A stretch of DNA of 64,000 nucleotides from assembly GCA_000934665.2 (NCBI GenBank), contig KZ538554.1, positions 1 through 64,000 of the forward strand. The letters run 5' to 3'. The position numbers were made by a program, and so were the translations under genes. This stretch comes from Catajapyx aquilonaris. Taxonomy: Eukaryota. Shown here one piece after another: positions 20,722-56,027 of this stretch (the stretch's first letter is position 1; each line of letters opens with the position of its first letter). A model generated the notes under the pieces. The model did not search any database and had not been told where the DNA came from. It worked only from the letters and a program-made list of their open reading frames with translations.

Positions 20722-21701
20722 TCACACGTACTCAGAGGGCACGGGTGACAAGGAGGCGCGGTCGGAGGGCAAGGGTTCCGGAGAGGTCCTGACCACTGGA
20801 ATACCGCGCCATTGCCTGCTAGGTAGCGGCGGCAGAGGTCTCCCAGATGACTGCCTCTCGTGCAGCCGGCCGGGGCTGTCCGGCACCTGGAGATTATCTG
20901 GATCCACCTCCAGCTGCATCGGCATCAGGTCGCGACACCCCCGTCCCGACATTCTCTCCAGCGAGTCATCCTCGTCCAGATCAACCACACCCACACTGGC
21001 ACCACCGTTGCTCGCACCCGCCCCCTGCATCTGCACCACCCCGCACCCCCTCCGGTCCTTCTTCTTCTTCCTGGTCTGCTGCAATTGCACATCCCTATGG
21101 TAATGTCGGTTGTCCGTACTCGACAAGTCTGAATAGTACGCACTGCTGGGAGTGGACGCACTCCCGGTGCTCGAATCCAGCGGTCCGTCTATCACATACG
21201 CCGCGTTTTCGTACGTACCATCTGAGAAGAGGCGCCGGAGTTCGCTCACCGCCGCACCCACGCCAGCACCTACCCCTGAGGACGGCTCTGGGATTTCCGA
21301 ATAAGTGTTGAGGGAGTAGGGCCGGTGGGCGCCGCTGCTGTGTGAGGTCGACACGCTGTTTAGCTCGGCGTACACGGCGCTTCCGGTGTCGCCCACGGCG
21401 GCGCAGCTGGCGTACGGCTCCTCGCAATAACTATTCTCCTCGGAGCCAGGCGTTCCCGGAGGCCTCAGAGGACGCTCGGGGCTGGAGCCTCGCTTCCAGA
21501 GGCGTAGGCGCCATCCTCCGCCGCCTCCGCCACCGCCAGAGGTGGAGCCAGCTGCAGCACCACTGGCGCCGAGGCCGCTCTGGGAGGACGAAGAAGAGGA
21601 AGAATGTGGCGCCGGAAGAGGTGGTGGGGTCTTGTTCGGGTCCGGACGCTCGCTGCTGCTCTTGTTGCCCCACTGGCTGATGGGAAGCACCGGGCACGAC
21701 T
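20722..21701 (-). CDS. Terminal coding exon (cytoplasmic tail, 325 aa plus the split codon) of an uncharacterised single-pass membrane protein
   Basis: This is the longest ORF in the window, GC-rich and protein-like. The acceptor gtgctgtttcag|AGTCGTGC lies at 21702/21701 (phase 1) and the TGA stop at 20722-20724. It reads (E)SCPVLPISQW...RPLPPLP...VPSEYV*. The ORF-track extension 21702-21804 is AT-rich intron. Confidence 0.92.
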
Positions 21702-24700
21702 CTGAAACAGCACCCAAGACATACATGTACTCGCCATATTCACTTGTTTCACATTCATTCAACACAGAACGAGAGCAGATTTTTTTTTTAAATGTCACTG
21801 TCACCGAAGCAAGTCAGATTCATAGAGATTAGTGGGTAAAAGGATTGTTGTTTGAAAAGCTTTCCTCAATAATCACCACACATTGCTGTTGGGATCAATC
21901 ATATTCATAAGATTGCGATAGCAGTTCAGTTCCCTAATACAGCAAGTTTAAATGGAAGTTAGTTTCAGGATCTCACTACAGAATGGTGTACCGGTACTAC
22001 TGCCAAAATCTCCACTTCAAGAGGGAGGTCGAGGAAGAAATAAAAATTGTTCACAACAACACAGTTTAAACAGAAACAGAACAATAGAAGATTTTAAAAA
22101 ATTATGGCCACGATCACTGGTCATTTTGGAAGCTGTTACTTAAACCGGTTGCTGGAGTGAACAATTATTGACCTATACCCCCTCTCTTGAACTGGGGACT
22201 TGGGCAATGCACCACCCTGTATTGAATTGATTGAAGTTTTATCTTTTACATAAGTCATTTAAAAACATTGCACCGTGAAGTTTTCAAATGCTCCATTTTT
22301 ACGCTCATTAACGCGTGCATCGTACAACCTAGAGTCTGGGGGTGTCCGTAAGCGGAACACTTCACACAGCATGTGAATACCACCCAGTTTACGACAAGAG
22401 CTGTCGCGAGTTACGAGACGGTGGCCAAGAATTCCCATCCCACCTAGAAGAAAAATCCGGTTCCAGGATATGAATAAATTGCATCCAATCAAAGCGTGCG
22501 CGTTCCATTCGAGGCACAATGGATGTCACTTTTGGTACCGGTAGATCTCATTAACATACCATCGTGTCCCATTGAGGCTTGGAAAGGAAGACACATGAAC
22601 CAATTATCTATTGGAGGAGAACATTTTCGCTGGAATGAGCCCCATTTTCGGTGAGGGAGCTGGAAGAATCGCATAGGGAAAAACCCGTAATTCAGCCTAG
22701 CCAACACCTTCCAAGTCCCCAATTTTTTGTTTTAATTAGTCCTGCGACAATATTTCTGCCAATAGTGTCCATTTGCGCATGGATAACCTGCCAAAGTCCA
22801 TCACATTACAAACCTCCCGAATACTGGTCTAGCATATGAAGGAAATGAAATCTGATTCAGAATATTTATTATGCTTATCTCCCATTAACATGATTTACCG
22901 CATCCAAAGACACTAATGGCTTCCCCAGAGTAAAATCATGGGGCCCAGAAGAACCGCATTCTCAGAAGGAAGGTTTGTGTCCCCCTACTACTGCTACCAG
23001 TCCCCCACAACTCCCATCCCTCCCCACCCACAGCAGCAGCCGCAGGTCCTGTAACATAAAATATGTGTCTGGAACGCGCCGGAAACAATGGCTGGAAGTC
23101 CCATTTACTCCGCCGAAGACGATTAATTTGCGATGTCTCTCGGCGGCGACTTCTCGGCACCGTTAGTCCTCCTCTCTCATTTTTATTGGCGTATTTGTTT
23201 AAACGGAGAGGGATTTCGTAGAGATGTCGCGGTGTTCATGGACCCAACTAGGAGAAACATGTCAGGCGGGCGTCCTTTTACGTTCAACGTTGCTGACGCT
23301 CTTCGGGCCAGTGTTTTACGTCCCTAACTACAAGAGTCACTCGCATTCCACGCCTTGTCAGCCGGACGATTTTTTTTTTCTCTGGCTTCTCCCAATTCTC
23401 GTTCGATGCTTTGTTTGCCTTAGGGTGTCATGCGGACCAAGAAAAAAGGTCCAAACGACAGGATCCTTACGCCAAATTACACGATCATCCTCCGACAATA
23501 CCATCTGCTATATGCAACGGCTCTACTCGAGATGTGCTACGCAAGCGCAGAGTGTAATCATGAGAAATGAAAAAGTATCAGGCTACTCTGCTACCTTCCG
23601 CTTGTCAGAACTGGTTCCAAATGAGTTGGGAGATCTTCCGGTAACTTCATTACTCAGAAGGTCGGAAGCGCATTCTCACTGTAACATGGAATTAAAATGG
23701 TTCCTCTGTAATCAGTGCTTATTTTCCTCTTGACCCAGTTAATGTAAGGGTGACAGATGCTTACTATTTAGATGAAAGTAACTACAGCGCTCCCTCTAGT
23801 TTTTTCAGTTTCTTTTTTTCGTTTTTTTCCACTTAACAACCTTGTTTGTGCGCGCCTGTTTCATCAAATTGCAATTAGAGCAGGAAGGCCGGCTCATTAC
23901 ATATTTCCCGGAACCTCTTTCCGTCTTATTAACACAAATTACAGGCCAAAGTACATGTCGAGTAATTGGATTTCCATGGTGAAGAAGAGAGGCAATAAAT
24001 CCGGCCGTTTCTTTAAGAAAATTCCAAACAGCTCTTAAACACAGCGGTAATTCCTGGCGACGAAAAGTAGTGCGAGGTTGCCTCTTTACATGAATCTCAC
24101 TTTGTAATTCAAACTTCCTCTTTGGTCCTCAGAAGTTCTCGGGCGTCGCATTGAAAAGACGACGACCCTGGGAAAATGTTGGATGCAATGCAATGCTGGC
24201 AGCAGCCATCTTCCTATAGTAGATGTGCATTAGGAGAATGATATCTTCCCGAAATCCCAAGAGCGCATTGTTTCACCTTCCACATCTGCTGTCTGCTGAA
24301 CTTGGGGTCTTGGACCAAGTCACTTGCATTATTGAATGCTGGTCTGGTCAAAAGAAAGACGGGAGGGCAAAGGAACGGGATATGACGACGCTATTCAAGC
24401 AAACTGCCTGGTGCTTGAGCTGGCTGGGGCTCGCTCAGAGTAAAAGCCTCCCGAGTTCTGGGCATGACGATCTCTAATTGGGCGTGTTCCTTCGGTTGGG
24501 AGCACGTCGTTCAAGCAGATAAGTATTCGCAGTCAGCCTCTTTTGCTGAAATTAAGGGATTTACTTGTTCTGGAGGCTCCAGCGGACCGTTGACAATGCT
24601 ATTCATTGTCTTTTCCAGATATGATCCCGATGCCCAATTTTCATCTTTCCAGAATTCTCGAACTGGATGCTGGGACGAATCAAGTTGGGAGCCAATCCCC

Positions 24701-26187
24701 GTTCGGATGCAATTAAGCAAATAATAGAAACCAGCAGTCTCGAACGAGGATAAAAAACAACGCCTTATTGATATCCTCGATGTGACATCAGAATCAATCC
24801 TGTACACGTGACGCTACTCCGCAAATGGCTTTTTCGAACATATGTTTTAAAATATTAGCATTGCCCCACCCTGTACATAGCGTAGGGGCAAGAACTGGAT
24901 TTAGTGTGGCGCCTAATATATTTGAGAGTGCGAATTCTTTCCTTTCACTACCAGTTCGTTTACCATCTGGATGGACCTCCGAGATCGATTTGATTTATTC
25001 CCGGGCTTGCCCTTTGATGATACTCGTGCTTCTTCAGCGTGAATATACTGCCGACTATACCATTAATACATCACGGTTTTCTGATACGGATCGAAAAAAG
25101 ACCTCGCGTGAAGAAGCCCAGAATGTAGCGCTCAAGTTCAGAACTTGGAAAGTGTAATCATTCCGTATAGAAACCAGTTGTAGGTTTCTTCCAGCAGAAC
25201 CTACTGTTTGAAAACCATAGCACAATTTCTTAGATTTTATTTTTTAACCGGTATCCTGGACACCACCGGTTAGCATTTAGAATAGATTTCGGATTCCACT
25301 TTGAAAAGTAATACTGATAAAGCTGGCGTTAATGAATTCATAGCTGTCGCTCGTCAGGCGTTAAACGGTAGTTAAACAAACATTCTTCCAAGTGTCAGCA
25401 TGTCTAGATAGAACCCTAGTGCCTCCCCTCTCTGGTGGATGGGAGAACCTTGTCATTTCCATCCATAGCAGGGAGCTGTATAATAAGTCAGGGTGGGGTG
25501 GGTTTCCGAGGCCAAGTAGGAAGAATATGCGAATTTGGTTAGTACATACTCTCCGCACTTTTCATCCAATTTCGGTGCGCTCACCAGCTCATAATGAAGC
25601 ATTGACGTGATATTGAAAAGCATGAAATTGTGCAGTCGGGCATGGGAGAGCAAAAAAGACCACTCCCAAACCCTAATTTATCAGTGACTGCTCACACCAG
25701 TGGCCATGGCTGCTTCGTCCGATTTACCCGTGACGTACCCAGTTGTGTAGAGGTCTAGAGACAGGCGTCGAAAAGGGGCCCGAAGATGTGCATAGAGAAT
25801 CAGAATGCCAGTCAGGTTCAACACAATGCATATTCGGTGAATGAACAGGAACTTGCGTTGTTACTACATTCTGCTTCGACAGATGACAAGAAGAAGAAGG
25901 AAAAAATGCTGCTCTCGTCGGTTGTAATAAAATACTTTTATGAGCCGGTACTTGTTATCTTTAAAAAAAAAGAAGGACACAAACAGCAATCTTCTGCGAC
26001 TGAAACAGGCGGTCTGTTAGATACAGATAGGGGAGAAAACGGAGATTTCCTCCCTTCCCCTTGTGTCCCTCCAGGTTTCACCGGATTTCTCCCCTCTGCT
26101 GGTCCCAAGGAGGATCCGGACTCCACGTGAGAAGGGAAGAAAGAAAAAGAAATAAGAAAAAAGAGGACGTAGTCGATGGGCACTTAC

Positions 26188-26210
26188 CTCCCGCCGGCAG
26201 GATCCGGAAC
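26188..26210 (-). CDS. 23-nt coding micro-exon, (R)FRILPAG(E)
   Basis: Strong acceptor cctaattttgtcctcgtctcttttgtgcag with a CTAAT branch-like motif, and a consensus donor GAG|gtaagt. Phase 2 in and phase 1 out exactly bridge the TM exon and the terminal exon. Confidence 0.85.
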
Positions 26211-29200
26211 CTGCACAAAAGAGACGAGGACAAAATTAGGCTGCTGAATGGGTGGGGGTTGAGGAGACAGCAACAGGCTTATAAAGCTATATGTTGCATG
26301 GGGGACAAGTACCAAGGACTGTGTCCCGCTCACCCAACAGTTTGAAAAAAAAGGCGGGAAAAAGGACAAAGAGCCCTGATTCTCCGCTCGACTGCGTCAT
26401 GGAGACAGAGGCAATTTTTTTCTCTCTTTCCCGGATTTTCCCCCAGAAAAGGATAAAAACGGAGCAACAGCTGTGATGTCCCAAGTTCATTTCCGATAGC
26501 ATTTACACCCGATCCCACTCCCAAGATGCGGAATTGATGCTCAATGACGACGCTTGATTGAGGATTCTGGGGGGGATACGCTCACTGCATTTTTCATTAC
26601 GTTGGCCTCCGAGACGTCTTTACTCAGATTTCAACTACACCTGTGCGTTTTCAACAATACTGTCAAATTGCATTGTATCCTGGCAGCGTTTTTTTTCAAG
26701 GCCCGTTGTATAACATGATAGCATACCTGAATTTTAGACTCAAGAAAGTGACTGATTAGACGGACAAACAGCGTTCCTGGCGGGCCAGGCACAGTTGCAG
26801 CACCTAACATTTCGTCTCATTTTTTAAAAAGTCGATCACTCGAATACTGCTATGATTGATCCAAGTTCGTTACTTCGAGGAGGAAAAATCCATATCTTTT
26901 GCCCAATACACAGCCTACCTAGCATGAGTCAGCACCTATTCTTCTGCGATCAACAGTATAATGTGCCATCAACCAGGCATCCCACTGCTCTTTCATGTTT
27001 TTGGTGCAACCTTAAATACGGCACACAATTGACTAGTAAGAGTCACCAGCGAGAAAATACTGAAAAGTAGCACTCCCACACAATAGCCACCCCATTCTAC
27101 AGTATACACGAGTCGCATTGACTGGACATCAAAGGTTGAAAAGCGAATTAGGTAAGTGACGGAAGCGTCATTATTTCGAACAGATCCTCTTCCAAATGTA
27201 TGGGATGGTTAAGCAATATTACATTCGCATGCAGCTCGTGTTTCATAAATCGTACACCTTACGACCTCACCGGATAGAGCAATCTTGTAGGATAAAAGAA
27301 ACTCTGCTGTATGACATTCATCAGAAGTAAAAGACCCCGCCTATCTCTTTTGTTCGGACGAAACAAAGCAGCGCAATTACAATTCACCCCCCCCTCCCCC
27401 ACCCTCTCATTTTGGCCGGCCCTTTGTGCTCGCATTCTAATTGGCGCTGAAGACGAAGGAAAATTAAAAGGACCGTGATTTTCTCGCGTTCTTTGCTAAC
27501 GACAGACACGAAAAGTATCGCGCCGAGGATCCCCTACAGCCCTTTTTGCCTCAGCCTCCTTTTTGAAACACTGCCATCATTTGGCCCAAGAGAGTTCCTC
27601 CCTCCACCATTGATGCCATAATTAAAGTCAACTCTAGGGGAAGAGAAAAGAAAGGATTTCGTTCTTTTTTTCCTCTCTTTTCTTTTCCCTCCCCTTCTTC
27701 TTCTTCGTCCCCTTCTTTTGCAAATGCCTCACCGTGATTGCGGGAAGAAAGTTGGATGGCGCGTGGCAAGCGACATTTCTTGAATCTGCCACTACCAGTA
27801 AGTGAATTACAGACTCTATACTCAATTTACTCTCGAAAACTGCATTTCCCCGCCATGTAACAACCCATCACATGCCTTGCTTCCACACCAGACTACCAGA
27901 CTCGGCTGTATAAGGATCGGTATACATGTGCAACAGGCACAAACCGGGGGCGAAACGTGCTATATGTAGCATTCTGAATATTGGATTACAATCGATACAT
28001 TATTAATAAAGAAATCGACACTGCGACCAGTGCTCCCGTTGTAATTTTGCAGCTGCAGCAGGGTGGTCCAAACCCAGCAGTTTGTATAACAGAAGATGCC
28101 AGTAGCGTGTCAGCTGCGGATGGAGGCATCTCTTTGTGTCCAAGTCCGCAGCCAAACCCAAGCACCCGAGGTCCTTAATAAATACAGGGCTCCGAGCAGG
28201 CTCCCCAAAGAGCTGAATGGTGTATTCACGACAACCGCACCTGACCTGTCAATGGTTGGTGCCTGCGGATGTCACCCGACAGGGAGAAAGGAACTAATCC
28301 TTGGTTAATAAGGACTCAAAGGGGTTCCTGCTGCTACCTTTCAAGCAGGTTGATGGTAGGTCGGGAAAGTCAAGAGCCGATTCTCACCAAACAGCGGGTC
28401 GTTTCAAGTACATCGCTTGCACACCATCTAATCACTATACCCTCTTTACCCTCCGTTTGCACCGGTACACCGAGGGGTGCCCACAAAGTTATGCAAAGGC
28501 TGGGGGTTCAAATTTGGTGGAATTTATATTTCGTCATTTTTTCCCCCGTCTCGGGTAATATAGTGTAAGTTGAGGTTTTTACTGGCTGAACAAAGGGCGC
28601 GATAGTGTGCAGGGTGTGGTGAGGCCCCCTGACTTGCAAAGCAAATTCCAAGGTCTGTAAGTAAGTCAATATAATGCTGACAAATATGGGGCAGTAAATC
28701 TGCACTGTATATGCTGCTATTTGCCAGCTCGTGCATAAGTAAATTCCCAATTTCAAACCTTTACGCACACCCTGCATTTATGCTTTCCATTTTCAACTGC
28801 GCATAAAATAATGTTTGGCATTAAAACAACATTTCCTTCATAAACCAACTGACCCGCGTTAAAACGCGGAACAAACAATAATTATTATTGTTTTGCAATA
28901 TTCCATGCATGCATGAGTATGACATTTTCGTTATTTACAGCAAGTTGTGTTACTTCCGCATGAATAAATCTAACTCCCGAACTAATCAGTTGTACCTGTT
29001 GTGTGTACAGGATGTTATTAAAATGGGCTAAAATATTGCACTGATTCTAGCATTGACTTGAGTCACTACCTACAACCAACTAAACAGAAATGTGTACTAC
29101 AGTGCACTGCACACCGTTACTGTAGGATTATCTACATCACAAACGCAAATGATTATTGCACGGCACCCAGTAAACCTGACTCTACTCCGGGCATTATCTT

Positions 29201-29310
29201 TGAGGTTAAGGTATAAGCTACCACTTCGATCGTTAGGTGAGCTTCGGAAACTAGAGAATGAAGAGCACTTGTGGCAAGCTAATCCACGCTACAAGCGTTC
29301 TGAAGACGAA

Positions 29311-29348
29311 CCCCCCCCNNNNNNNNNNNCCCCCCCCCTCCCCCCCCC
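29311..29348. other. Poly-C tract with an assembly gap (N 29319-29329)
   Basis: Read directly from the sequence. Confidence 0.95.
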
Positions 29349-31787
29349 AAAAAAAAAATGGCCACAAGTGCAGCCGAGCATTGCTCTGAGGGTAGAGCAC
29401 TCTTGATGTCAACCAGAATATTCCATCTGCTTGGTAGAATCATAGGTATAGTTTGTAAGCCAGCGGGCCTTTGTGTCTGCGAGGAAGAGGATCTCGTGCC
29501 AACAATCCATAACTTGGGCCCCACCGCAACAGGTCCAAAGTTCTTAATTATCCCACTCACGATCCGTCGTTATCGTGTCTGCGTGAGGTGGTAAGCAAAA
29601 CGCTAAGTGTTTCTAGCACTGACCTTACATGAAAAAAGTGTACTCGGCTACAAATCGGTGAACAGTGAAGCTGCCAACTGTCGTGACCATTAGCAGAAAA
29701 AAAAGGAAGGAGAGATTATTACATTTGGGAGGTAGGGTGTAGTTGAAGCAAGAGGGGTAATGCGAGACCGCGCGGACATGAGGTACGAGGATGACGAAAA
29801 AGGCGATGGCCCAGAGGCACGAAAGGTGACAATTAATCACCCGGTTCGTGTGACAAGGTGCAGCAAAAGCGAGTGGTGGTTCCCTTGATAAACTCCGGGG
29901 GAACATTACTCGGTCTTCATCAGCGGATCGCCACATAGACGCCTTGCGGTGCCCACCCGGATATCACATGGAAAAGTTAATTTCCTGATGGTGCGCCCGG
30001 CCTGATGAGCCAATGCACTCTCACCCCACCACCCACACCATGATATCTAAAATGTGCGACACAGATTGCAATCCCCGCTTTCGGCCATCAAGCTACAACA
30101 ATCAACATTATTTTTGCATCCCTCATTGGCTCATTTGCACCTCGATAAATGTTCCGCACTGCAAGACGATTGGGACGGACAAATGCATTTCAACTCCCTC
30201 TGACAGACGGCTCCTTTTACAGCCAATATTTCCACAACAGTGCTTATCGAACATTTGCACATTTTATTCAGATCGGTGCACGATGATGATCCAACTGAAG
30301 TAGCGTACAATGAGCTAGTTCATTATTTATAATGACACAAGGGGGACGGAACCCTCCTGAAGAGGCAAAAAAAAAGGTGAAGTAGGGAGGGTTGGGGGGC
30401 TCCTTTTGCATCAACTGTTACCTTTATTGAATGCGAGGTATGGCCCAACCAACTACAGCAGCAGCCCTCGAGCTTGGTGTGCTCTTCCACTCTAGAGACT
30501 TGTAGGCGGTGCGCTTTACTTTGGGATACACGGTGAATATTGAATGACCAACTGTTTGCTCTGCCCCGGTGGGCCTTCTGCCGACCTCTTTCGCTTGTTA
30601 ACTTTCACATGTCGTGGATACAGAGGGGATCTGGAAATCCGATGAAGTCCCTCCAGGGTTGTGGAAACAGGGGGGAAAAAATTATGTGGCTCTTTCAGGA
30701 CCGCGAACAAAAAAAGACAAGCAGGACGAGAGGGTATACATGCCAAAGTGGTGCGCAGGAATGTCTATGTACGGGAATTCATATGCAGTAAATAGACCCG
30801 GTTTGGACAATATTAGACAACGGACTAGCCTACCTTGCTTTACCCTCAAGATGTTGAGAAGTAAATGAAAATTTGGGTGCTGTTACGGAGACCTTTTTTC
30901 CTCCCAGTGTTTAGTCGCTCTATGGCACAAATGCCACATAATATACCCTCAACATATTGACGCGGACACCTCCTTCTAGAAATGCTCAGGAGTATTTTTT
31001 TGTCCTATGGGTTATCCCCGAGTACTGACATGTCATTTGGGAGCAAATAGTGAACAAATATGTAAAGAAACGCTAGGCACGGTCCATCTCGACTGTACAT
31101 AATGTACACTGACGTGACGTGCCCAAAAATAGGCGAAAGACAGCAACATATGCACTGTGGAACAGTAGCCATTGCAGCGTGAATTATTAAATTTCATCAA
31201 TTTTGCTTCATTTAGTATCATCAGATTGTCATGTCATTCGCGTTTTCATTGATATGAACCTGTTTTATGGATTTTTGGAGAGCCATTTAGTTACCCTGCA
31301 CCTGCATTTTTCTCATATCTGATATATGTGCTGGTAAAGAGCATATTGGCATGACCACTTATAGCCCTGTAGATTTAATCATTGCCTTTTTCCATCCAAT
31401 ACCTGTGTACCGCCCACCCTGAGAAATCAAATTGCATGTAAAAATAGTCACAAACTGCAATTACCTTTTACTGCATGCAATAATACTTTTTATTGGACGT
31501 GACCAGTAAATGTGAGGCGAATTTGCCTCCCAGGTTGTATGCATGTTCATCAATATAGAGAAGGCTACCAATCTCTATAGACTTGTAAAGAACGGGAACA
31601 GAAGGATTAAAATACCATTTAAAAAGATCACTAAAGCTCTTTAAGTACTACATTTGGCCACTTTTCAAGAACTACACTAATATAATGCCCCAAACGGGAA
31701 TTGATAAGCAGCAATGTCCTTCATGACCATTAATTTTGTTTTTATTGCCAATTTCACTTTGTCAATATTCCACTACTTTTTAAGTAA

Positions 31788-32023
31788 TGTAGTGCCCCAC
31801 GCTTGAGTCGTCAGACACACCACATAAATACTCCAAGAAGCACAAGGGGAAGGTAAAAGAACGACTATGGAACTCTTATTCAGGACAAAACGGCAGCAGG
31901 TCCGTTCAGGAGAACGGCCGGTCAAGAACTAAAAAACAATCCAAACAAACTCTGTTTCCCAAAACAACATCAACAGTCATGTTGCCTAAGCAACATACAA
32001 CACTTCGTTGCCGGGCCACTACA
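31788..32023 (-). mobile_element. Solo LTR (236 bp), probably gypsy-like
   Basis: It starts TGTAGTG and ends CACTACA (TG..CA with a 7-bp IR), flanked by the 4-bp direct repeat GTAA (31784-31787 and 32024-32027). Minus orientation is inferred from TTTAGTT and AATAAG motifs. Confidence 0.75.
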
Positions 32024-33423
32024 GTAATTCATAATGCTAAATAACATTATCCTTTTTGCTTAAATAATAAATTACTGACTCATTTTACATACCATTGTAT
32101 AAATTACAAGCTTATACATCTCAGCATATTTTCAGCACAAAAATTTCATCATGGTCGCGGTAGCTAATGAAAAGGTAGAATTTCATCTAAGTTTCATTAT
32201 ATGGCACAAAACCCCGTGATACATTGCGACAAGGGCCAATCTACGCCCACGTGAACACGGCAATATGAATTGTTATATACTTGGAAGGCCCCCTAGACCG
32301 CAAAGAAATGAGGTAGACCTAGAAGTCTATACAGAGTTTCTAGTCCCTGGCACGAGCCTTCTTTTATCCTTTGGCGATTGAACAATAGGTTTGGCCATAG
32401 GAGAATAATTTGTCGGACGGACTTGTGCGAGGGGGCGATTCATTTGACCAGAGAATGTGGACTGAATAAGAGGCAGCGTCACGGAAGCTCCATTGTTTCG
32501 CGATGGGGTCGTTAGTGGGTCTCATGCCCCCGCTCGTTATAATCCGGCCTTGCTGAGAGGATTTTCTCTCCCATGCCTCTCTCTGGGGCTAGCTTGTCCC
32601 AGGGATTCTGCCAGTAATTTACCAGAGAGTCCTGCTCCTTCTATCAATCAGCCCATGCACGCGACAACCATTTGGTGGGTGGGTTACAGAAATGGCGCAC
32701 AGACAGCGTGCACTGGGCGCCCCCTTGACTGCAATTAACTCTGAATTATCCCCCAGATTATTAATCAAGGGAGGCTGTAATGCAGGGCTTGGTAGCGGTA
32801 TGGGTGTCGTTGGGCCGTCACATATGGTGGTATGCACCGCACAATGAGTGGGCATGTGTGGGGAGGTGGGGTGAAAAAAGAAAGGTGGTTCCTGCTGCCA
32901 TCAATCTTGATCCGGGCATTAAAAAAGGGAGGCGGTCCATGAAGGATTCCAGACGGCATTCGAAAAACCGAATGGCAAAGCAGCTCAGCCGACGGTTCTG
33001 CTTGTGAATTAATAGGCGAATCCGCCATCCATCTTGCCAGTGCCATTTTACTTCCCTTCTGGTCGTCAGTGTGTGTCCAAATCCCTGGCTGAATTAATGA
33101 TGAGCGTGTGCTGGGACACCCGTACCGGAGAAAGCATCTTTTCAAAAGCCAAGTCGGATCAATTCATTGATGGCTTCGACGTCAGATGTAACCTACGGTT
33201 AATTAATTTGCAGGCATTCCGCCTGATTGCTGCTTCTGTCCACGGGCACACACAGAATTTTGTATGGTCAATATGACTCATTTACTATAATTATACACCT
33301 GTTGCTGAACTCGTGTTTGCTGGCGAATATTAGCTTGCGGTTTTGTTTGTACAGGCCTTGTGATGCCAGGATACCATGCCGAAGTGAATAAGTGATAGGT
33401 GCGTTCAATCGGGTGTTACTCAC

Positions 33424-33526
33424 CTTCTGCATTTCAGCACCAGCACCATCAGTGCTGCGCCAGCCACCGCAGAACCCAAAGCCACCATCACTAGAATGGG
33501 GATCCAGCTAGAATCGCCTGCATTTT
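33424..33526 (-). CDS. Transmembrane-helix exon, (E)NAGDSSWIPILVMVALGSAVAGAALMVLVLKCR(R)
   Basis: Acceptor cttcttttccttattcattgcag and donor AAG|gtgagt; 103 nt, phase 1 in and phase 2 out. It encodes a ~24-residue hydrophobic stretch followed by a basic KCRR stop-transfer signal. Confidence 0.88.
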
Positions 33527-40299: not shown

Positions 40300-40312
40300 G
40301 GGGGGGGGGGGN

Positions 40313-40340
<28 letters not shown>
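40300..40340. repeat. Poly-G run, single N and (GA)n microsatellite
   Basis: Read directly from the sequence; the N is at 40312. Confidence 0.9.
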
Positions 40341-40343
<3 letters not shown>

Positions 40344-43039: not shown

Positions 43040-43280
43040 TTATCCTCCTAGTCCGCCTCCCCAGTGAACGAACTAGACGCAAGAGTGGCACTTAAAATAA
43101 GGATAAAATAATGCCCCGTACAAGTTATCCTCAAATTTAGACTCCCCGTTAAACAAGACTGACGCATGGGTGGCCCTTAATAATCAGGATAAGGCATCCC
43201 ATTTACTCATATTTATCCTCGTATTTATACTTCCCGTTAAGCAAGAGTGCCATATGGGTGGCTCTGAATATTCAGGATAA
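43040..43280. repeat. Three diverged ~68-bp units, each bounded by TTATCCT...AGGATAA, separated by 18-20-bp unrelated spacers
   Basis: Units at 43040-43106, 43125-43192 and 43213-43280 share T(C/T)CCC(GTTAA)...G(G/A)GTGGC cores; the period is about 87 bp. Confidence 0.75.
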
Positions 43281-46200: not shown

Positions 46201-47632
46201 AATGGATAAATGTAGACGGCTCAAATAATCCGGATGAATAAATAATGTGGTGTAGAGGGGGCGTCAAGAAGGGCGAATAAAGGCATTTCGCGTCATTTCA
46301 TGCGCCGAAAAATCAGGTGTAGTTTGCAAATTTGCAAAAAGATTTACTGCTGCTAGGCGGAAATTACACTTCCTTAGGAAGTTGTGATGCAAGAGTAAGA
46401 CAGGGAAAAAAATAAATAGAAGCGGAAAAAAGGGAGTCTGCAAGTTGCCATGTTGGAAGAAAGCGTATTTCATCTGCGCAGCAGCAGGAAAACTGTTTAT
46501 TTATTTATTATCTCTGACAGCTTGTGAAATGTGGTCTTCCTCCCAGCATTTTAAGTTTGTACATATTTCAAAAAGTTGTCCCCTGCAATATTTCATCTTA
46601 ATTATGTTCGATTTTCCCCTCTGAGCAGATATATACGGTATATATACTGTATATATATATATTTTTTGAAACAGGCTTCCTGCAGAAAACTTTTATGGCG
46701 TGAGATTTAAAAGGTCCCGGACAAGAACTTGTGAAATCTGGACACGCCCCAGACAAAGTGTGTTTTCGGATGTAGCTGTAGGGAGGGAGATGGGGAGGGG
46801 GGCTTGGGGAGTGGGAGGGATATGCCGGGCGATAGACTAGAAAATCCCCGAGGCTATGGAAGCGGGTATTAATCTTGCATTAGCCGCGGTTGTTAGCTGA
46901 AACCGAGATTCGTTGCTGCGGTGGCCAGAGTGGGAGTAATTTACAGGTCGGATCCTCGCTGCTGATCGCCATTTATCATTAAGTGGAAACACACATGCGC
47001 ATGTCAAGGCCCCAATTTTTATGCGCCACACTCTGTAGCCTACCACACTCCAAGAGTGACTGGGTCCAAAAACAACCCGGTTACAGCTTTCAACCACGCC
47101 CGGCTTCGGTGAAATATGAGGGACAGAAAAATATGTCGCTGCATATGTTTTCAGTGCGCTATAGGCGTCAAAATAACGCAATCTCACATAGTCATGTGCA
47201 GGGAGGCGAGACTAAATGTCCAAGAGTGTCAGGCTTTCCAAGATGGTTGATGAAAGTGACTGCGACGAATGAATAGGGTTCTTTCATCTCCAAAAAGAGA
47301 CTAGTGTGTATAGTAGATAGTCACTTCAAGGACCCACTGATGGTGGGCAATCGAGTGTTTCCCGGTTCCAGACCTAAAATCGACACACTGACGTATATTG
47401 CGGTGCAATGTCGAGTTTTACGAAAAAAATAGAGACGGTGGGACTCGAGCACACAGCCAGGCTTTATACTGTACGTGCTATTTCAGCCGTACTCCTTTTG
47501 AATTCTAGTGCAGTATAATAATATCATTTCCAATGATCATGCTGGGAAATTTTGCCAGGATGTCCCATGGCACAACTGCAAAAATAGCTAAACAAGAAAC
47601 CATATTGCAGCCAGAATATTGGTAAGGAAAAA

Positions 47633-47699
47633 GCAACACTGTCCTACTTCTAAGCCAACAAACGCAGCGTTTGTTGGCTTAGAAGTAGGACAGTGTTGC
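47633..47699. repeat. Perfect 67-bp palindrome (33-bp arms, 1-nt centre)
   Basis: GCAACACTGTCCTACTTCTAAGCCAACAAACGC-A-GCGTTTGTTGGCTTAGAAGTAGGACAGTGTTGC. Confidence 0.95.
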
Positions 47700-50600
47700 A
47701 TCAGTTCACAATAACACATTTTGGAATTTACAGTCGGACATAACATTGTACCTTTTCAAACGCGGCCATACGTCACATTCTGCGCATGAGGAAAACACAT
47801 TAAAAGGGAAACGGATTATACTGTTTCAATGGGTGTGCATTTGCTCAGAATTATGAAATTAAACTGCAGGATGAGCCTATTTAACCCTCATCCCGAAATT
47901 CCAACTCTGCCTCTACTTTTCCCATGTATGAAATTATATTCGAAATGAGTCCAGCAGTGTGCAATTCACTTGTATCTTATGATAAGCAGGCTATATATTA
48001 GTCCAGGTATTGGTTCAGAATTCTGAAGGTTAATCCTGGACTTGATGGTCAGTATCAGAGTTAAAGAATGTACGACAATGCGGAAAATACCCGTCAAGAA
48101 AGTATTTTCGATATGTCCAAGATATTAAAAAAGAGAGAGAGAGAGAGAGGGAGTTGGCCATCGAGCTGCTAATCTGGCCAAAGAGTAAGATCCAGCTCGT
48201 CTGCCATTTTTACGGGCCTTTTATTGACTTTACACGGCTAACGGCGTCATAAGGTTGGGCGCTTGTGCCAAAATCGCCTCTCGCCAACTGATTGCCTTTC
48301 CGCACTTTTGGCGGTGGCAAACGCGATTCCGGGAGGAAAAGGGCCAGGGTTGAGTCATGTCATAGCTGACAAGAATCACCATTTTATATTAGTTAGACCC
48401 TTGTCCTTTTCCATTCTGAAGTGCAGGGTGCGGGAAAGGGCAACACCAAAAAATGATCTGGGGGTGCTGGAATTATCCTGGAACAGGCTCAGGAAATTTG
48501 TTTCGAATTTTTCTCTCCAGGAGATAAACTGTGTTCACAGTGGTGTAACTCATTTTCACTGCCACACTTGAACGAGGATCTACAACTTTGGAGGAAAAAG
48601 AAGACCCTTGTATGTAATAAATTTCTACCTGCCTCTGGCAGGATATTCGAAATGGTTGTGCATTCATAGAAGAGGAGAAGAAGGGTAGTAGAAGTTTCGC
48701 TCTACCAGAATTGGAAAATATATTATGCAAGTGCTTGGAATGGCACATTTCATTCTTATAAATTTCTACGGATAAACTATATTTGACAACAAATTATTGC
48801 GAGTAATTCTATGCTGGTTCAGTTGAAGCTTTCTTTTTCTTTTCTTTTTTGCGTTAATATTAATAAATTCTCGACTATATCCTACACCTGCGGTATATGC
48901 GTAGCATGTGCAGGGTGCACTGCAAATCCCCAGTTCAAGGAAAGAAGTTTAGCTATGTTATGTTTAGTCCAGGAACCAGTTTAAAGAGAAGAGACGACAC
49001 AAATTCTGTGGCCCTGGTAGTTGCTTCCAGCAGGTTTCTTCTCTTTAAACTGGTTGCTACAGTAAACAATCCACATAACATTTCCCATTCCCCTACCCTC
49101 CCAAACTTGAAGTGGAGACCTGGGAAGTGTACCACCCTGCACAAAGAAGTTAGCATAAAAACTCGGAATATTTGGCAGGTGAGTCTCTGAGCACGCATAA
49201 TCTAGTTCAAAGCTATCTGATACTGACATTTTAATATTCGAATGCGTCGCGTATATGTTGCAGATTTCGCATCTGTATACTCGTAATATACAGCGTGTTT
49301 CAGATGTTATCTCAATTATTGTGATAACATCCGTATGTGTAAAAATCTCGTGGCTGATGTTAATTTCCAGTCGCTCCTGTCATACCTCAGTGCCTTCAAA
49401 TGTGACAGTGACTTACATACGAGTAAGTTACATACGTACGCATCGTTGGAAAGCCCATTCAATATGCACATAACTAAAGCAGGGGATTCAAATATTATCA
49501 TCCATATTTAATTTTAAATTCGTGTAAAATAGTGCACAAGTTAAAATTCAAGTACGTCGGGCTGCCTCGCGAATCTTTTAACAAACACAGCATGACTTGA
49601 AGCAGTTATATACTGGCTCTATTATAATTATTCTTCCCAAAGTAACTACAACCTGCCCAGGTTTATTATTGCAGCCTTCGAGTCTGAATGCATTTGCTCA
49701 ATATGAAATTCCCAACCAAATTCTGAAGCCTTCCATATAGCACGCGCTAAATTATTACGCTTGTTGTTTTCGTCGCGTTGCAGAGTTGAGCATGTTCCTA
49801 GGTGTTTGGCAATTGTTGGCAAGACAAGTGTGGCTGATCCCATTCTGTGTGACCTCTAGAGGAAAGTCAGCCATGCAGGCAGGCTTTGAATCCAGCGATG
49901 AGTCTGGCATGGGAAGAATGGCCTCCTGCGCGGGGCTCCACATCCCGGCGGACCGATATGTTAGCATGAAATAGCCACTTGGGCACCTTTCCTTGTCAAA
50001 CCTGGAGCTGAATCTGTGCAAAGCTTTCTCCAGTTGGTTCCTTTTTTCATCTGCCCACTACTGGCACCCATACATTGCTGTCAGCTGCACACTTTTGCGC
50101 AAGACTGCTTTTCCCTGATATGTATGGTTTTTCCAGAGGTTTTGGGAGTTGTTTATCTCCCCTGCCTCATTTATTTTCCACCCCTAACCCCTCTCAAACT
50201 GTGAAGGAGGTAGGAAAGGTGTTTTGAGACAGAAATATGGGCCGATTGGTGGAATGCGACTCATCAGGTATGTATGGCGTATGGTCCGAGTCACCCCGCA
50301 TTCTTACCCTAGGAAACGACATTCCCAAGGTACCAAGTCGGTAACATTTCCGCGGGATTTATGGATATATCCGTCGTGTACCTCTCTGTAACAAGACAAT
50401 GTTAATGTGCGGGGCGTGACCGTTTGTTTAGCTGGGGAATTGTGATGGGCACTGGCATCAGTCTCCGCCTACGGAAACTATTCAATATGATAACTTCTAC
50501 AACTGCATATAACATTTCTCAAAATATAGTCTATATTTCATACTAAGATTTTGATTATGAGTAGCTGGTGCTACAACAAATTTACATTTTGACAATTTTT

Positions 50601-53600
50601 GTTGTTGGAAAGAAGTTTAAATAAGTAATTACTACAAGCAGCCTAATAGTCATTACAGGTAACTTGGTATCATTTATTAGCATAAATCATTTATAACTTC
50701 TCGACAAACTTCAGAATTAGGCACACTCGGTTGATTACACAGCTAAAGCAGGGGTGATAATTGTACTGTACGGCAGTATTCCCAACTTAGTTTCCTCCCC
50801 CAGGTATTTGGTATTTCCCCCCGACTTATTTAGTATCGTACAACCTTTGCATGTGTATGCTACAATGGACATTATAAACTATCTCATAATAATCCCAAGC
50901 CTTGCATTTAGATTTACCTAACAAAAACGAGAATAGGTGGAAACAAATATATTCTATCACTTGATTTCAAAACATTGTTTGGGGTCATTTAGCTGACGTT
51001 GAATATGAATTCGTGCCCACTTATAATTTGTACTCAAACGTATTAACTGTATGTCAAAAAATGTTTCAGAAAAATGGCTCTCCCCTGTCGCTACACAACC
51101 ACCAGCACTGCAGAAGAGAAAGATTTGTTTTCTCTCTCTCTTGCTGGAGTGCTGATGGTGGCATGGTACAAGGATAAGCTTGTTCAAAACTTTTTTGACA
51201 TTACAAAATTGCTAATTATGTGAAGTCATTTTCATTACACGATTAATGATTCCTTGAAAATCGTTACAAAAAAGACTTGCAAGTTTTTGATACACAGTTT
51301 CAATATAATATTATTGTAAATTTTTGTGGAATTTTATTGGAAACTCTCGATTTTTTTGTTTAAAATACATACGCACTAATTACTGCAACTAATAGGTTAG
51401 CAGTAATGCAGCCGACAAGGCGGATACAAAAAGTACCACACTGTTATGCACAGGTAGCAAAACTCTAGCCCTCGATATACGAATAGCAAAAAAAGAGGTG
51501 CTGCACTCCCAGCCCCGTCTGGGTGCAATGTTCTCAAAAAACGCCAACTGGGCCTTTTTAGCAAATGGAAAAATGGCCGAAAGGAGCAATAGAAGCGCGA
51601 ATCCAGTGCAAGAGTTGGCCCAGGGCACCAGCAGTGGCCTCAGGGCCATTTCGTTCGCACCAATTTCCAACCCCTCCTCTGTACAAAAAAGGCCAATTGC
51701 GATATGTTCTCTTTTTTAGGAGGTTGTTTGGTGGTGAAAAGCAACGTGTAGGTATGTAAGCCGTATAATAATGAATGGAGGTTCTCCTTATATATTTTTT
51801 TCTCTCATTTCTTTTCTTTCCTTCCCGAACACTTGGCGTCTTCTGACAGCAGCTTGGCCTTGACTGACCTCCGCTACGTAAGGCGGAGTTTAGGTCTGCG
51901 GGGCGTGGAACGCTCAGGTCACAGGACCTTCAGATCTATAGCTGGTCGCCTAGATACTTTTCTTCTCCCTGCCTTTTATTTTCTTCCTATTTTTGTCCCT
52001 TTTTGTTTCTTTGTCTCATCCGGGCGGAAGTGGATCACCTTGAACCAAAGAGATATCCGTTGGAACACCCTGCCACTTACACCCTCTGCCACTTGGAACT
52101 GCCAAACTCGGTAGAATTCTCTCCAGGATTGGCAAAAAAATAGCCAGAGAGCTTTTTTATGCGGCCTGATATCTCCCGCCAGAGCGTGTGAAACACAAAT
52201 CCGGGAAAAGGCCCACATTTTGCCGAAATTATACTGGGGACCCACACACCCTGGGGAGTCTCGCATGCAAAACACATGAGTCACTTTGACTCCCACTTTA
52301 ATGTAAATATTTTGCTAACAGTTCCCCGATGAGTTTACTTTCCTACACTAACGTCCACCCCCGGCTTGATCCTTCTACACTTTTCCCCCAAAAAGTTGGA
52401 GGCGATGCATTATACACAGGGATCCCTACTTAATAAGTTGCTTAATGCTGGAATGAAATTCAGCAGGGGCATTAGGCCTTTGCTGTTCATCCTCGGGCTT
52501 AGTGCCACTGCAGACATCAGATGGTGGACTTTTCGCCCCCCTGCCTTCTCTTCTAAAGACAACAGAAGGCGACTCCAGGGGGGATGTTGATGTGCTTTTC
52601 TAAGCCCCTGGTAGCCAACACTACACTAGGAGGAAGCGAACTTCAAAGGGTATTCACCACGCTTAATGTGGTCATTATTACAAATAATAGGCGCGCTCGA
52701 GTACACAAAGTTTTGAATCGATCCCAGGCACGTGGACCGGAGTGAGAGAATATCACGGTAATCAATCAAAAGAGCCTTGCTCCTTGATTCAAATTATTTG
52801 AGTCCACCAACTGCAGGGATAACTTTCCCCTCAGCGGGAGGAGAGTTGCTGAGTCAAGACTTTGATGGATGGTAATCACTTGGAAACTAGTGGGTGAATT
52901 TATAAATGGAACGCGACTGACATTGACAACTCTAGAATTTCTACCTGGCAAAAATCAGTCGGGTCTATCTCCGCATCTGTGCTCAGCAGTCGCCAAATCA
53001 ACAACCCTCTCTTGGGCTCCTCCTGGGCCTGAATGGTCTTGGGCTCTCCTTGGACAGGCATTTCCTTTGGAAATGGAGCTGTGGCAATGGCGGGCACTTG
53101 GTGAGGCCCGGCACGTCCCCCAATGCAAGGCCATTAGAGCTGACAATCTCCGCGAGAAATTGCCTCTTTGAAAATGCAGATTTTGTTGCGCGGGGCGGGG
53201 ACGGGACGGAGCCCATACTTTTTCCCAGTAGGCAAATGTGTTAATCCCCTGTATGCGATACGGGGCCGGGGTTTTGTGATGGCAGTGCGCTAATCTCGTT
53301 TGATCGCCTCTTATTTTATCGCCTTCTCTACCTAACTCAATTACGGGCCTCCGACGTCCTCCAGCCATATTTTATCAGGACCTGATGCGAGCTTCAAATT
53401 AAGGCCAGGCTGCAGGAGCGATTCCAGGGGAATCTTTTCGGCTCCCCGCAGATGGCTTCGGATTCACAAGGAAGCCGTAATCGCCTACTTGAAAGAACGA
53501 ATGGCCATTTCAACCTATTGTTGGACTACTATTGGCTTACTAGACAGATGTTCCAATATCGGGTTCAGACCGCATTTATATCACTTTGTCACTCAATTCC

Positions 53601-55090
53601 TTTCTAATCACGTCAAAGAAGTCAAAATGGTTCATTCCGACTTGAAGAATGGTGGAGGAGCTATTATTCTCAACAAACAACTGCTGGGCCAACTCGGATA
53701 ATTTTGGTCAAATGACCTTAATTTCCGCTTTATCCGTCCTCTTTCCAAAGGCTATTGGGTAATTTGCATATGACAACTGCAATGGGCTAATAATACAGGA
53801 CAAGCTACTATACCCCAAAATATTTTAAAATGCATAATTTTTGTTATTACTTATTAGCATCTAGTTCTGCATATAAGTTAACAAAAACACTGACTCTCCC
53901 ATGTTATATGACTCGCAACATGTAGGCATCATAACCCACAATATATCGCAGCTGCAATCTTCTCATTTTTACACGCCTGAAAACACCTTTCTCGGAATTA
54001 GACCTCATAAGATATCTCGTGAGACATATTTGTGCCATCTAATTCGTGTAACGTACATTTACCTAGGTCTAGCATCACCTGGGACAGTGCAAAGTACCGT
54101 AAGGAGATGCCATTATCGCGCCAGGGTGTCTAAGGAAATGTCCCGCTGCGCTGTCATTACCATATATCTGCTCTAAAGTACGAATAGCTTCCGTCCTTCT
54201 TTTTTTTTTAATTTTTCGACTTTCCCAGAGCTCATACCGTCCGCCCATTATGCAGGATCCCCGTCTCCTTTTCTTCATTCCACTCTTTCCGCGCTTTCTT
54301 TGCTGAAATCGTACTCGAATGGAATATTTTAATTGCGTTCGTTTTTCTTCTGTCCTATAGGTAAAGCAGTTCTCTTGAGAGAGTTTATATAAAATTTTAT
54401 TTCCTCCGTGAAAACTGTATAAAATGTCTGTAGATAGTTCAGCCTATAGTTTATTCGAGCCAGTATCACGACAGATTTCGCGGTGGAAACAGCGTACCAC
54501 AAGAGACTTTCACGGCTGCATCTCTTGATATTTTTTTGTTGTTTCTTACGATTTTTTTTTGTGGCCACTCGAACGTCGGCACTCATGTGGCATAAATCAC
54601 GCTTGGATTAATTCGTGACTAGGTATTAACAAAAAATGTTCATTGTATGCCTGCCATTCGGTCACCAGATATAATTATTCTCCATGAAACACGCAGGCTT
54701 GGAAATAGGACTAAGCATCACGCACTTACTGAGATAATGCCAAGTGTAAGAAGAAAATGCACGTTACAAGCAGCTTCACTTTGGGCGTTCCAGGCTGGGC
54801 TATCTAAAAGTATTTTGAATAACCGACAACAACAAAAAAACAAGTACAATGAAAGCATTCTTGTTAACACTGCTCCGCTTTTTCTGACAGCACCTGGATG
54901 ACCCTTGTTGACACACCCTGAATATGGCAGCATGTCTGTCTGACAGACCCTCTGCAGTCAGTCTAAGGTCTACCTCAGTTAGAGACAGACAACGTGTCAC
55001 ATATGACGAGGAGAAAGGTGCGAGGACAGCGTGCAACTGGCTGTTTCCAGCCATAAAGGTGGTGGAAAAGGGGGTAAAACACCCGATTAC

Positions 55091-55169
55091 CGAGGTACTG
55101 CTGGAAGTCGTGCGGGTCTTTGCTGGTGTAATTAGGAGAGCGGATAGCTTTTGATCGAAATGAAGAGGT
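55091..55169 (-). CDS. Probable ectodomain exon, TSSFRSKAIRSPNYTSKDPHDFQQYL(E)
   Basis: Acceptor ccttcctcctctgctctgctgcag and donor TCG|gtaatc; 79 nt. Phase 0 in and phase 1 out match the TM exon, and it contains an N-Y-T sequon. A second frame is also open, so the reading is not certain. Confidence 0.5.
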
Positions 55170-55892
55170 CTGCAGCAGAGCAGAGGAGGAAGGTTGGGTC
55201 ATCATCCGTGATGCAACTCACGCTCTGGAAAACCCGTTCTTCCCCCAGGTCTCCCGAACCAAAAGCCAGCCAGCATCATGAGAGTCTTAAGGTCCACCGG
55301 CACCTCACCTATTCGGTGGTTGGGGGGCCCAACATAGCAGAAGGCCAACTCTCTCCGCGCCTACTTCATCCAGAGTAATGGGTGTTTAGCAGGCGTGGCT
55401 GTCTTCACGCCGTAATCAGCCGGACGTTACCCCCTAACCCTCTGAGGCCAACTTGCATCCAATACACTCTGGTAGTTGTTGTTATTTTCACGTCACACCA
55501 CACGGAGAAATTCCACGGACGTTCCATAAACTGGCAACTCTGTAATCAACGTCCAATCAAACCTCATTATGCTGCGCCCAGTCAAGCTGCGCGCGCATCG
55601 TAACCGTTGCCAAATATCAGCCACCAGCGCCATTCTCTCAACATGGTAAATGCAGCCTAAGGGCTAGTCGTATCAGCAGAAATGAAAGGAAAATCTCTGA
55701 TTACGTACAGGAATGCACAATATATTATAATGGTTGATTCACGGGCTCTCTCTGACGATCGGGGCGTCCCGTGATTCATGAGTGAGAGATAAAGCTAATA
55801 TTCACTTAGCAGCGGGGCGGCTGCGCATGAGCCCCGAATCCTCATGCCCACTCCGCCCTGTCATCTTCATCTCCCGCCCGCTGACAGCTCAC

Positions 55893-56027
55893 CTGGTCTC
55901 CCTTGTAGTTGCAAGGGGCAGCGCCCCGCCAGACCCACCGTGGCTTCGGGACTCGCCGCCAGGACCCCCTGACGTCATGCGCGAAATCCAGGGGACCGAC
56001 TTCCTGCGCATGACTCATCCATGACAT
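55893..56027 (-). CDS. Probable first coding exon, MSWMSHAQEVGPLDF...CNYKGDQ
   Basis: GC-rich block ending in the strong donor CAG|gtgagc. The ATG at 56027 gives 45 codons and phase 0, compatible with 55091-55169. An in-frame TGA lies just upstream, and a possible acceptor (ctcttcag) ends at 56038. Confidence 0.45.

Follow-up and report, generated by a model that had tools for sequence, protein, structure and literature searches.

LAT, a membrane scaffold of vertebrate immune cells, is a type III-like single-pass protein whose Y-x-N motifs recruit Grb2, and it is not known to carry an SH3 ligand or a conserved C-terminal motif. Other single-pass proteins end in tails of a comparable kind. Ephrin-B has a short conserved tail with Src-phosphorylated tyrosines and a C-terminal hydrophobic PDZ ligand ending in Y-x-V. 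Shisa-like adaptors combine a small Cys-containing ectodomain (6–8 Cys) and one transmembrane (TM) helix with a proline-rich disordered tail bearing PPxY motifs. The kinase Csk is conserved in invertebrates, but a Cbp/PAG-like protein that would anchor it to the membrane is not known to us from these animals, and literature searches listed none. Cbp/PAG itself, as an excerpt of its description states, has one TM helix, two palmitoyl sites directly after it and nine tyrosines (PMC3492796). Here we present a locus from Catajapyx aquilonaris (assembly GCA_000934665.2, contig KZ538554.1), located in a stretch of 64,000 nucleotides (positions 1 to 64,000, referred to below as the window), for which a preliminary description had proposed a hidden minus-strand gene for a LAT/PAG-like adaptor. 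It is almost certain, in our judgment, that positions 20722–33526 on the minus strand contain the three 3′ exons of an orthologue of the Drosophila melanogaster gene CG42747.

Three 3′ Exons of the Window Gene

The supported part of the gene consists of three exons:

20722..21701, minus strand: terminal coding exon, entered in phase 1; 325 amino acids (aa) encoded at 21699 to 20725, TGA stop at 20724-20722
26188..26210, minus strand: micro-exon of 23 nucleotides (nt), encoding (R)FRILPAG(E), the juxtamembrane linker
33424..33526, minus strand: transmembrane exon, entered in phase 1, encoding NAGDSSWIPILVMVALGSAVAGAALMVLVLKCR(R)

The terminal exon, whose AG acceptor is TGTTTCAG, is the longest open frame in the window and codes for the entire disordered cytoplasmic tail. 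Its GC content reaches 0.60–0.67 against a window mean of 0.45. The translation of this exon found 41 homologous proteins at E ≤ 1e-3 (best E 5.7e-31), the named matches being all crustacean, and tblastn with eight homologues matched it with E down to 3.4e-34. The same eight homologues matched the TM exon with E 3.9e-7 and 5.4e-5, and this exon was also the sole significant match of the ectodomain plus TM profiles across the six-frame window (E 9.6e-9 and 4.3e-10).

The micro-exon alone gave weak tblastn matches with these homologues (E 0.67–2.8). It is bordered by AG and GT (TTGTGCAG / GTAAGT), and the spliced junction reads KCRRFRILPAGESCPVLP, which fits the family counterparts KCRRFKVLPRGGSCPTLP (P0027) and KCRKFKILPMTDSCPILP (P0044); the junction residues agree with the family motif F[KR][IV]LPxG. 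Several shortened database models of relatives start exactly at these exon borders (...GRVFKVLPRGGSCP and MYFFIFTDTCPVL), from which we infer that the borders are old. On homology and on the family-typical junction residues, we regard the TM, micro- and terminal exons as real.

The preliminary description had placed two further exons upstream of these three. Rebuilding all five stretches from the window gave 1320 nt when joined, with no internal stop, 439 codons plus a stop, and four GT...AG introns of phases 0, 1, 2 and 1, precisely as it had stated. Its confidence in the last three exons has likewise been justified, both by the tblastn matches and by the family-type spliced junction, and the rebuilt product does have the reported single TM helix, juxtamembrane Cys and domain-less tail with 11 Tyr (14 in the whole five-exon model). 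The only hydrophobic stretch in the model is WIPILVMVALGSAVAGAALMVLVL, followed by KCRR, and a second Cys lies 13 residues further on. The product is a single-pass membrane protein with a conserved Cys at the end of its TM helix, directly ahead of basic residues.

The CG42747 Family among Arthropods

An exhaustive search of 1.84 billion representatives with the family profile returned 53 proteins at E ≤ 1e-3. The named members come from the mite Sarcoptes, the millipede Chamberlinius, the amphipod Hyalella, isopods including Armadillidium, Daphnia, Artemia, barnacles and decapods. A weak match from a parasitoid wasp (P0075), placed in a small alignment, led to 105 matches in Hymenoptera, many Drosophila and other Diptera, Coleoptera and a damselfly (Odonata). 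The D. melanogaster member is CG42747 (NP_648045.2, Q9VRW9). When the non-insect and insect profiles were compared with each other (hhalign), they matched with a probability of 99.7 and E 4e-27 over 213 columns, covering the ectodomain cassette, the TM helix, CRR, W-W-RR, YAEL, Y-x-N-x-x-Y and SSAYYSD.

The window tail and CG42747 are linked by profiles alone. Their pairwise BLASTP comparison was not significant, which is expected because only short motifs are conserved. The window protein has sequence and profile similarity to the family over its tail, carries C[RK][RK] at the end of the TM helix (...VLVLKCRR), and contains all the tail motifs: YAEL, Y-x-N-x-x-Y, SSAYYSD and the C-terminal PS[EDQ]Y[VI]. 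A quick tree did not place it within any one of the non-insect groups, and the named members include none of its own arthropod lineage. The best ESM Atlas score, 0.84, fell to arthropod clusters and serves only as a lead.

No described domain could be assigned to the family. Scanned against Pfam, the tail (E ≤ 1) and 27 members of the family (E ≤ 0.01) produced nothing beyond one low-complexity SR-25 match, and no Pfam domain is recorded for any family match. The search of the PDB with the family profile found no relative, its one match being at chance level (E 0.064). Six crustacean LOC identifiers are not mentioned in the texts of the papers searched. In the same texts, as far as they were available, CG42747 occurs in gene lists only, one of TET-activated genes of the larval central nervous system (CNS) and one a candidate set from a genome-wide association study.

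The gene cannot, in general, be called hidden as had been proposed, since its family is annotated, as uncharacterised or under a misleading automatic name, in dozens of arthropod genomes, with CG42747 of D. melanogaster among them. In calling the protein unrecognised, the proposal agrees with our survey: no characterised orthologue and no functional study of the family turned up in the literature searched. Hymenopteran orthologues (P0097, P0101, P0102, P0111, P0074 and others) bear the names 'TSC22 domain family protein 1', 'midnolin homolog' and 'E3 SUMO-protein ligase CBX4', and one Sarcoptes record is called 'Laminin subunit alpha-1'. To judge from the sequences, which give no ground for them, these automatic names (TSC22, midnolin, CBX4, laminin alpha-1) are misleading.

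Conserved Motifs of the Cytoplasmic Tail

Disorder is predicted for the cytoplasmic tail, which is about 330 aa long and conserved only in short linear motifs. The AlphaFold model of the window tail, made with the family alignment, had a mean pLDDT (predicted local distance difference test score) of 49.7 and no secondary structure. The conserved islands are WxxKxWRR, ENSYxEEPY, SAVYAELN, NTYSEI, RRLxSDGTYENAAY, STPSSAYYSD, a Lys run, DLMPxxLxxxPDN, RPLPPLPSRQ and the C-terminal PSEYV. Across 24 sequences, conservation of at least 90% is reached by eight of the 11 Tyr in the tail, and these eight stand in SH2-like contexts. In the window these motifs lie as follows:

21490..21513, minus strand: basic-aromatic motif WRLRLWKR, where the tblastn alignments start; W63 at least 90% conserved and W68 invariant in the family alignment
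21361..21372, minus strand: YAEL (Tyr110) in SAVYAELNS, invariant in the family alignment
21292..21303, minus strand: YSEI (Tyr133) in YSLNTYSEI; Y-S-E invariant in the family alignment
21196..21213, minus strand: YENAAY (Tyr163, Tyr168), the Y-x-N motif; Y163 and N165 invariant and Y168 at least 90% conserved in the family alignment
21127..21147, minus strand: SSAYYSD (Tyr188, Tyr189), invariant in the family alignment
20821..20841, minus strand: proline motif RPLPPLP (R-x-x-P-x-x-P), from the tail translation
20725..20736, minus strand: C-terminal SEYV, the family C-terminal [EDQ]Y[VI]

Motifs were then counted in 232 family sequences, fragments included, of which 81 are of crustacean/myriapod type, 140 of insect type and 11 of chelicerate type:

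Y[AS]E[LI]: 214/232 of all; 68/81 crustacean/myriapod-type; 135/140 insect-type; 11/11 chelicerate-type
Y[EDQ]N: 202/232 of all; 57/81 crustacean/myriapod-type; 134/140 insect-type; 11/11 chelicerate-type
AYYSD: 199/232 of all; 64/81 crustacean/myriapod-type; 135/140 insect-type; 0/11 chelicerate-type
Y[ST]E[IVL]: 70/232 of all; 61/81 crustacean/myriapod-type; 0/140 insect-type; 9/11 chelicerate-type
[RK]PLPP.P: 51/232 of all; 40/81 crustacean/myriapod-type; 0/140 insect-type; 11/11 chelicerate-type
C-terminal [EDQ]Y[VI]: 186/232 of all; 56/81 crustacean/myriapod-type; 130/140 insect-type; 0/11 chelicerate-type
C-terminal [VI]RL: 11/232 of all; 0/81 crustacean/myriapod-type; 0/140 insect-type; 11/11 chelicerate-type

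Outside the tail, C[RK][RK] at the end of the TM helix was present in 136/232 sequences and the ectodomain motif PPPP.P in 139/232. These family-wide counts point to a universal core that comprises the ectodomain cassette, the TM helix with its Cys and basic residues, YAEL, and Y-x-N-x-x-Y. Conserved islands of Tyr and Pro motifs had been predicted for this protein from the sequence alone, and both the family alignment and the counts contain them.

Ectodomain of the Relatives and the 5′ End of the Gene

Full-length relatives have 100–270 aa ahead of the TM helix, often behind a signal peptide. Their ectodomain contains a conserved cassette composed of two Cys, PPPD, PPPPxPxF[LM], a spacer and CxLCx[W/L/I], with four conserved Cys in all. 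In the AlphaFold model of the Artemia relative the TM helix has a pLDDT of about 97, two short ectodomain helices have 67–81, and the tail has less than 50.

Database models of the relatives differ at their N-termini. A signal peptide is present in the Daphnia, barnacle, millipede, amphipod and isopod models. In the insect (including CG42747) and Artemia models (P0194, P0134, P0036), about 95–135 aa precede the TM helix, and a hydrophobic signal peptide is lacking at the N-terminus. Two explanations offer themselves: members of the family differ in using a signal peptide or a signal anchor for insertion, or a first exon is absent from the insect models. In decapod models and one isopod model (P0005, P0009, P0011, P0054), the initial Met already lies within the TM helix (M[IV]GVLVGVAL...). 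Both signal peptide and ectodomain cassette are present in the Hyalella model and in a longer one from Armadillidium (P0087). The short crustacean models are probably 5′-truncated, a very long first intron hiding their ectodomain exons.

In the window gene the TM exon is entered in phase 1 and no in-frame start lies ahead of the helix, therefore at least one upstream coding exon must exist. Then we can ask: Where is it? Two stretches had been put forward in the preliminary description:

55893..56027, minus strand: proposed exon 1, without family similarity, inside a GC-rich island (GC 0.62)
55091..55169, minus strand: proposed exon 2, GT-AG and phase correct, weak donor GTAATC, without family similarity

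In the 30.5 kb upstream of the TM exon, 429 open exon candidates with an ATG start and 271 internal ones leave in phase 1. With about 700 phase-compatible candidates, a phase-consistent GT-AG chain is expected by chance. Two ectodomain profiles, built from 14 and 50 sequences, were run against 3173 six-frame open reading frame (ORF) pieces of the window. Pieces overlapping either proposed 5′ exon scored E of about 150 or worse, at no more than 0 bits, and none of them appeared at E ≤ 50 with the 50-sequence profile. Neither proposed exon is similar to any of the 232 family sequences. The cassette PPPPxPxF[LM]...CxLCx[WLI] was not found in the six-frame window, and the next-best profile matches after the TM exon (E 0.082 and 0.22) are low-complexity or lie off the locus. 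Motif patterns, tblastn with the eight homologues, the two ectodomain hidden Markov models, a scan for signal-peptide-like ORFs and an enumeration of strong donors yielded no convincing upstream exon.

Several candidates were rejected as chance matches: the poly-Pro ORF 62034-61915 (E 0.84 and 0.22, with high bias), the ORF 41316-40927 containing CRVCREKSW (E 220), the ORF 46096-45824 (E 0.48), the stretch 55086-55000 (E 9.3) and a signal-peptide-like ORF at 51649.

The stretch 55893..56027 is unsupported as coding, and the GC-rich island around it may represent a promoter or a first exon that is not translated; 55091..55169, also unsupported, is probably intronic or intergenic. The exact five-exon model of 439 aa, in which an ectodomain of about 78 aa lacks a signal peptide, is thus very unlikely to be the true transcript. 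Its GT-AG borders and phases are correct, its first exon falls in the GC-rich island, and the insect and Artemia relatives likewise have no signal peptide. However, these features have to be set against the missing family similarity, the absent cassette, the weak donor of exon 2 and the hundreds of upstream candidates that are equally compatible in phase. The two 5′ exons and the short ectodomain they encode, at odds with the longer, cassette-bearing ectodomains of the relatives, are therefore the parts of the preliminary description that we do not retain. Smaller still is the chance that we are dealing with a decaying pseudogene or with a truncated copy whose 5′ exons have been lost, as might be thought from the lack of an ectodomain exon in the 30.5 kb upstream and from a degenerate duplication directly after the stop. 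The frame of 325 codons is open, all conserved motifs are preserved down to the exact C-terminus, and splicing signals have the canonical form. Introns as long as those between the three exons (4.5 and 7.2 kb) make a first intron of more than 30 kb plausible. Because the known introns already have such lengths, the missing exon most likely lies beyond the window. The gene is 5′-incomplete in the window, or its ectodomain has diverged.

Proposed Function and Alternative Explanations

RPLPPLP is the class I consensus of Src-SH3 ligands, pYxN is the consensus of the Grb2/Drk SH2 domain, and the invariant C-terminus suggests a PDZ-type anchor. Cbp/PAG uses YEEI/V motifs for Src-SH2 and a YSSV site for Csk-SH2, according to the excerpt of its description (PMC3492796). 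YAEL and YSEI resemble Src-family and Csk SH2 ligands. The acidic residues before the helix and the basic ones after it suggest that the protein sits in the membrane N-out/C-in, and palmitoylation of its membrane-edge Cys is possible. As for the tail, it would be a docking scaffold at the plasma membrane, switched on by tyrosine phosphorylation. A Src-family kinase would bind RPLPPLP through its SH3 domain and then phosphorylate the conserved tyrosines; pYAEL and pYSEI would hold Src/Csk-type SH2 domains, pY-E-N would hold the SH2 domain of Grb2/Drk type, and the C-terminus would tie the complex to a PDZ scaffold. Such a protein would work like Cbp/PAG or LAT without being related to them and, unlike them, would have an extracellular module as a possible ligand sensor. 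Read from motifs, this mechanism taken by itself is plausible and falls just short of what we would call probable. The combined statement, that the window gene is a CG42747-family orthologue and that its product is a phosphotyrosine/SH3/PDZ docking scaffold, is one that we favour by a little.

Several points weigh against this combined statement. The 5′ end of the gene is not in the window, which therefore shows no intact full-length gene. YAEL and YSEI are compatible with endocytic sorting signals of the Y-x-x-hydrophobic type as well, and with its Glu at position −2 SEYV falls outside the commonest class of PDZ ligands. The conserved ectodomain of 100–270 aa in the relatives differs from the stubs of LAT and PAG, and the protein may be a receptor itself. 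Insects have neither RPLPPLP nor YSEI (0/140 each). Since insects lack RPLPPLP, the Src-SH3 step cannot be universal in the family; the universal elements are YAEL, Y-x-N and the ectodomain/TM cassette. Finally, the search, which did not extend to phosphoproteome supplements, brought up no data on phosphorylation, palmitoylation, expression or binding of a family member.

If the protein is a receptor, the four-Cys/poly-Pro cassette would be its working part: a small ligand-binding or adhesion-type receptor, probably neuronal, whose tail anchors it to PDZ or cytoskeletal scaffolds as the tails of ephrin-B, neurexin and syndecan do. The cassette PPPPxP...CxLCxW is kept from mites to flies, lies inside the profile-profile match and is predicted to form a short helical hairpin (pLDDT 67–81). 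The C-terminal hydrophobic tripeptide is present in 186/221 mandibulate-type sequences, and in the available part of one study CG42747 appears in a list of TET-activated genes expressed in the CNS, together with Dscam3, DIP-eta, otk and sli (PMC11068012). We nevertheless consider such a receptor rather unlikely, since the Pfam and PDB searches recognised no binding fold in the tiny ectodomain, and the strongest conservation of the whole protein is found in the cytoplasmic tyrosine motifs. Moreover, a receptor with this tail would overlap with the docking scaffold instead of excluding it. The tyrosine motifs may also be read as Y-x-x-hydrophobic sorting signals of a protein that cycles via endosomes and controls how other membrane proteins are trafficked or turned over, in the manner of Shisa-like adaptors. 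YAEL, YSEI and YVID each fit that pattern, and the architecture, with its small Cys-containing ectodomain, one TM helix and long Pro-rich disordered tail, fits such an adaptor. However, the tail has no PPxY or LPxY, the conserved contexts of the tyrosines (SAVYAELN, TYENAAY, SSAYYSD) are wider than a sorting signal requires, and Y-x-N and AYYSD do not match the sorting pattern, which leaves this explanation distinctly improbable.

The docking scaffold, which we prefer to both, can be extended to a more ambitious and only tentative proposal, one that we would sooner doubt than defend. The CG42747 family would be the independently evolved arthropod counterpart of Cbp/PAG and LAT, a palmitoylated scaffold to which the invariant YAEL and Y-x-N (and RPLPPLP outside insects) would bring Src-family kinases, Csk and Drk/Grb2, and which would be coupled to an extracellular sensing cassette. 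In that case the family would supply the missing membrane anchor of Csk in invertebrates.

If the docking scaffold is real, arthropods, the fly included, would have a membrane-anchored protein of their own for phosphotyrosine docking, one that does not share its descent with the adaptors of vertebrate immune cells, and the organisation of Src, Csk and Drk at invertebrate membranes could be tested through one small gene, CG42747. The adaptor hypothesis is testable in Drosophila because the family of the window gene is now defined and linked to this fly gene. Three results hold independently of any function: a previously undescribed family without a Pfam entry is defined across chelicerates, a myriapod, crustaceans and insects; many automatic gene models of crustaceans start inside the TM helix; and the earlier model of five exons is corrected to three supported ones.

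Other Features of the Window

A degenerate direct copy of the RPLPPLP-coding stretch is located in the 3′ untranslated region:

20627..20703, minus strand: copy of 20782-20861, with blocks of 40 nt and 33 nt at 75% and 79% identity and spacings of 158 and 155 nt (repeat search)

The copy at 20627-20703 would still read RPLPPLP in another frame. It resembles the outcome of a small tandem duplication in the region of the C-terminus.

The GC-rich island extends over 55801-56200 (GC 0.62 versus 0.45). Three of the five TCATGCGCR sites of the window fall within 190 bp there (55822-56013); the expectation for the whole window is 0.77 sites, and 0/100 shuffles reach five. A TGACGTCA site is found near the island as well. 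The island resembles a promoter or enhancer.

No other gene was recognised in 1-20500 and 33600-64000, where Pfam gave 0 families in the 20 longest other ORFs and Rfam gave 0 matches. The tandem repeats of the window are four short simple arrays only, and there are three short N runs (9922-9943, 29319-29329 and 40312).

Comparison with Known Systems

By Pfam scans the window protein does not belong to the LAT, NTAL, PAG1, LIME, SIT or TRIM families. Vertebrate transmembrane adaptors have a very short ectodomain and are not known for a ligand-binding module, whereas the full-length relatives of the window protein have ectodomains of 100–270 aa that include the conserved cassette. Because no relation to any Pfam family was found, LAT and PAG included, an analogous and independently evolved protein is the only tenable form of the LAT/PAG likeness, and this is the form in which the preliminary description had proposed it.

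Cbp/PAG1 resembles the CG42747 family in its one TM helix, the Cys by the membrane, the long disordered tail with many tyrosines in SH2-type contexts, the proline motifs and the C-terminal motif, as far as the excerpt of its description goes (PMC3492796). In contrast to the family, with its extended ectodomain, cassette and single membrane-edge Cys, PAG has only a stub outside the membrane, and its palmitoylation sites form a CxxC pair. No Csk site of YSSV type is evident in the CG42747 family, and there is no sequence relationship. LAT and NTAL (LAT2) share with the family the design of a type III-like single-pass scaffold with Y-x-N motifs, but they are not homologous to it, and LAT has several Y-x-N sites where the CG42747 family has one conserved site.

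Ephrin-B likewise joins a tyrosine-bearing tail to a C-terminal hydrophobic motif. It differs in its folded receptor-binding ectodomain, and no sequence similarity to it appeared in any search made. The Shisa-like adaptors share the small Cys-containing ectodomain, the one TM helix and the Pro-rich disordered tail. However, the CG42747 family has four conserved ectodomain Cys, the window tail contains no [PL]PxY, and no Pfam match was obtained.

The closest comparison is with CG42747 and its arthropod orthologues themselves. Although the insect members are without the YSEI and RPLPPLP that the window protein has kept, they share with it TM-C[RK][RK], W-W-RR, YAEL, Y-x-N-x-x-Y, SSAYYSD and the C-terminal PS[ED]Y[VI], joined in the relatives by the ectodomain cassette.

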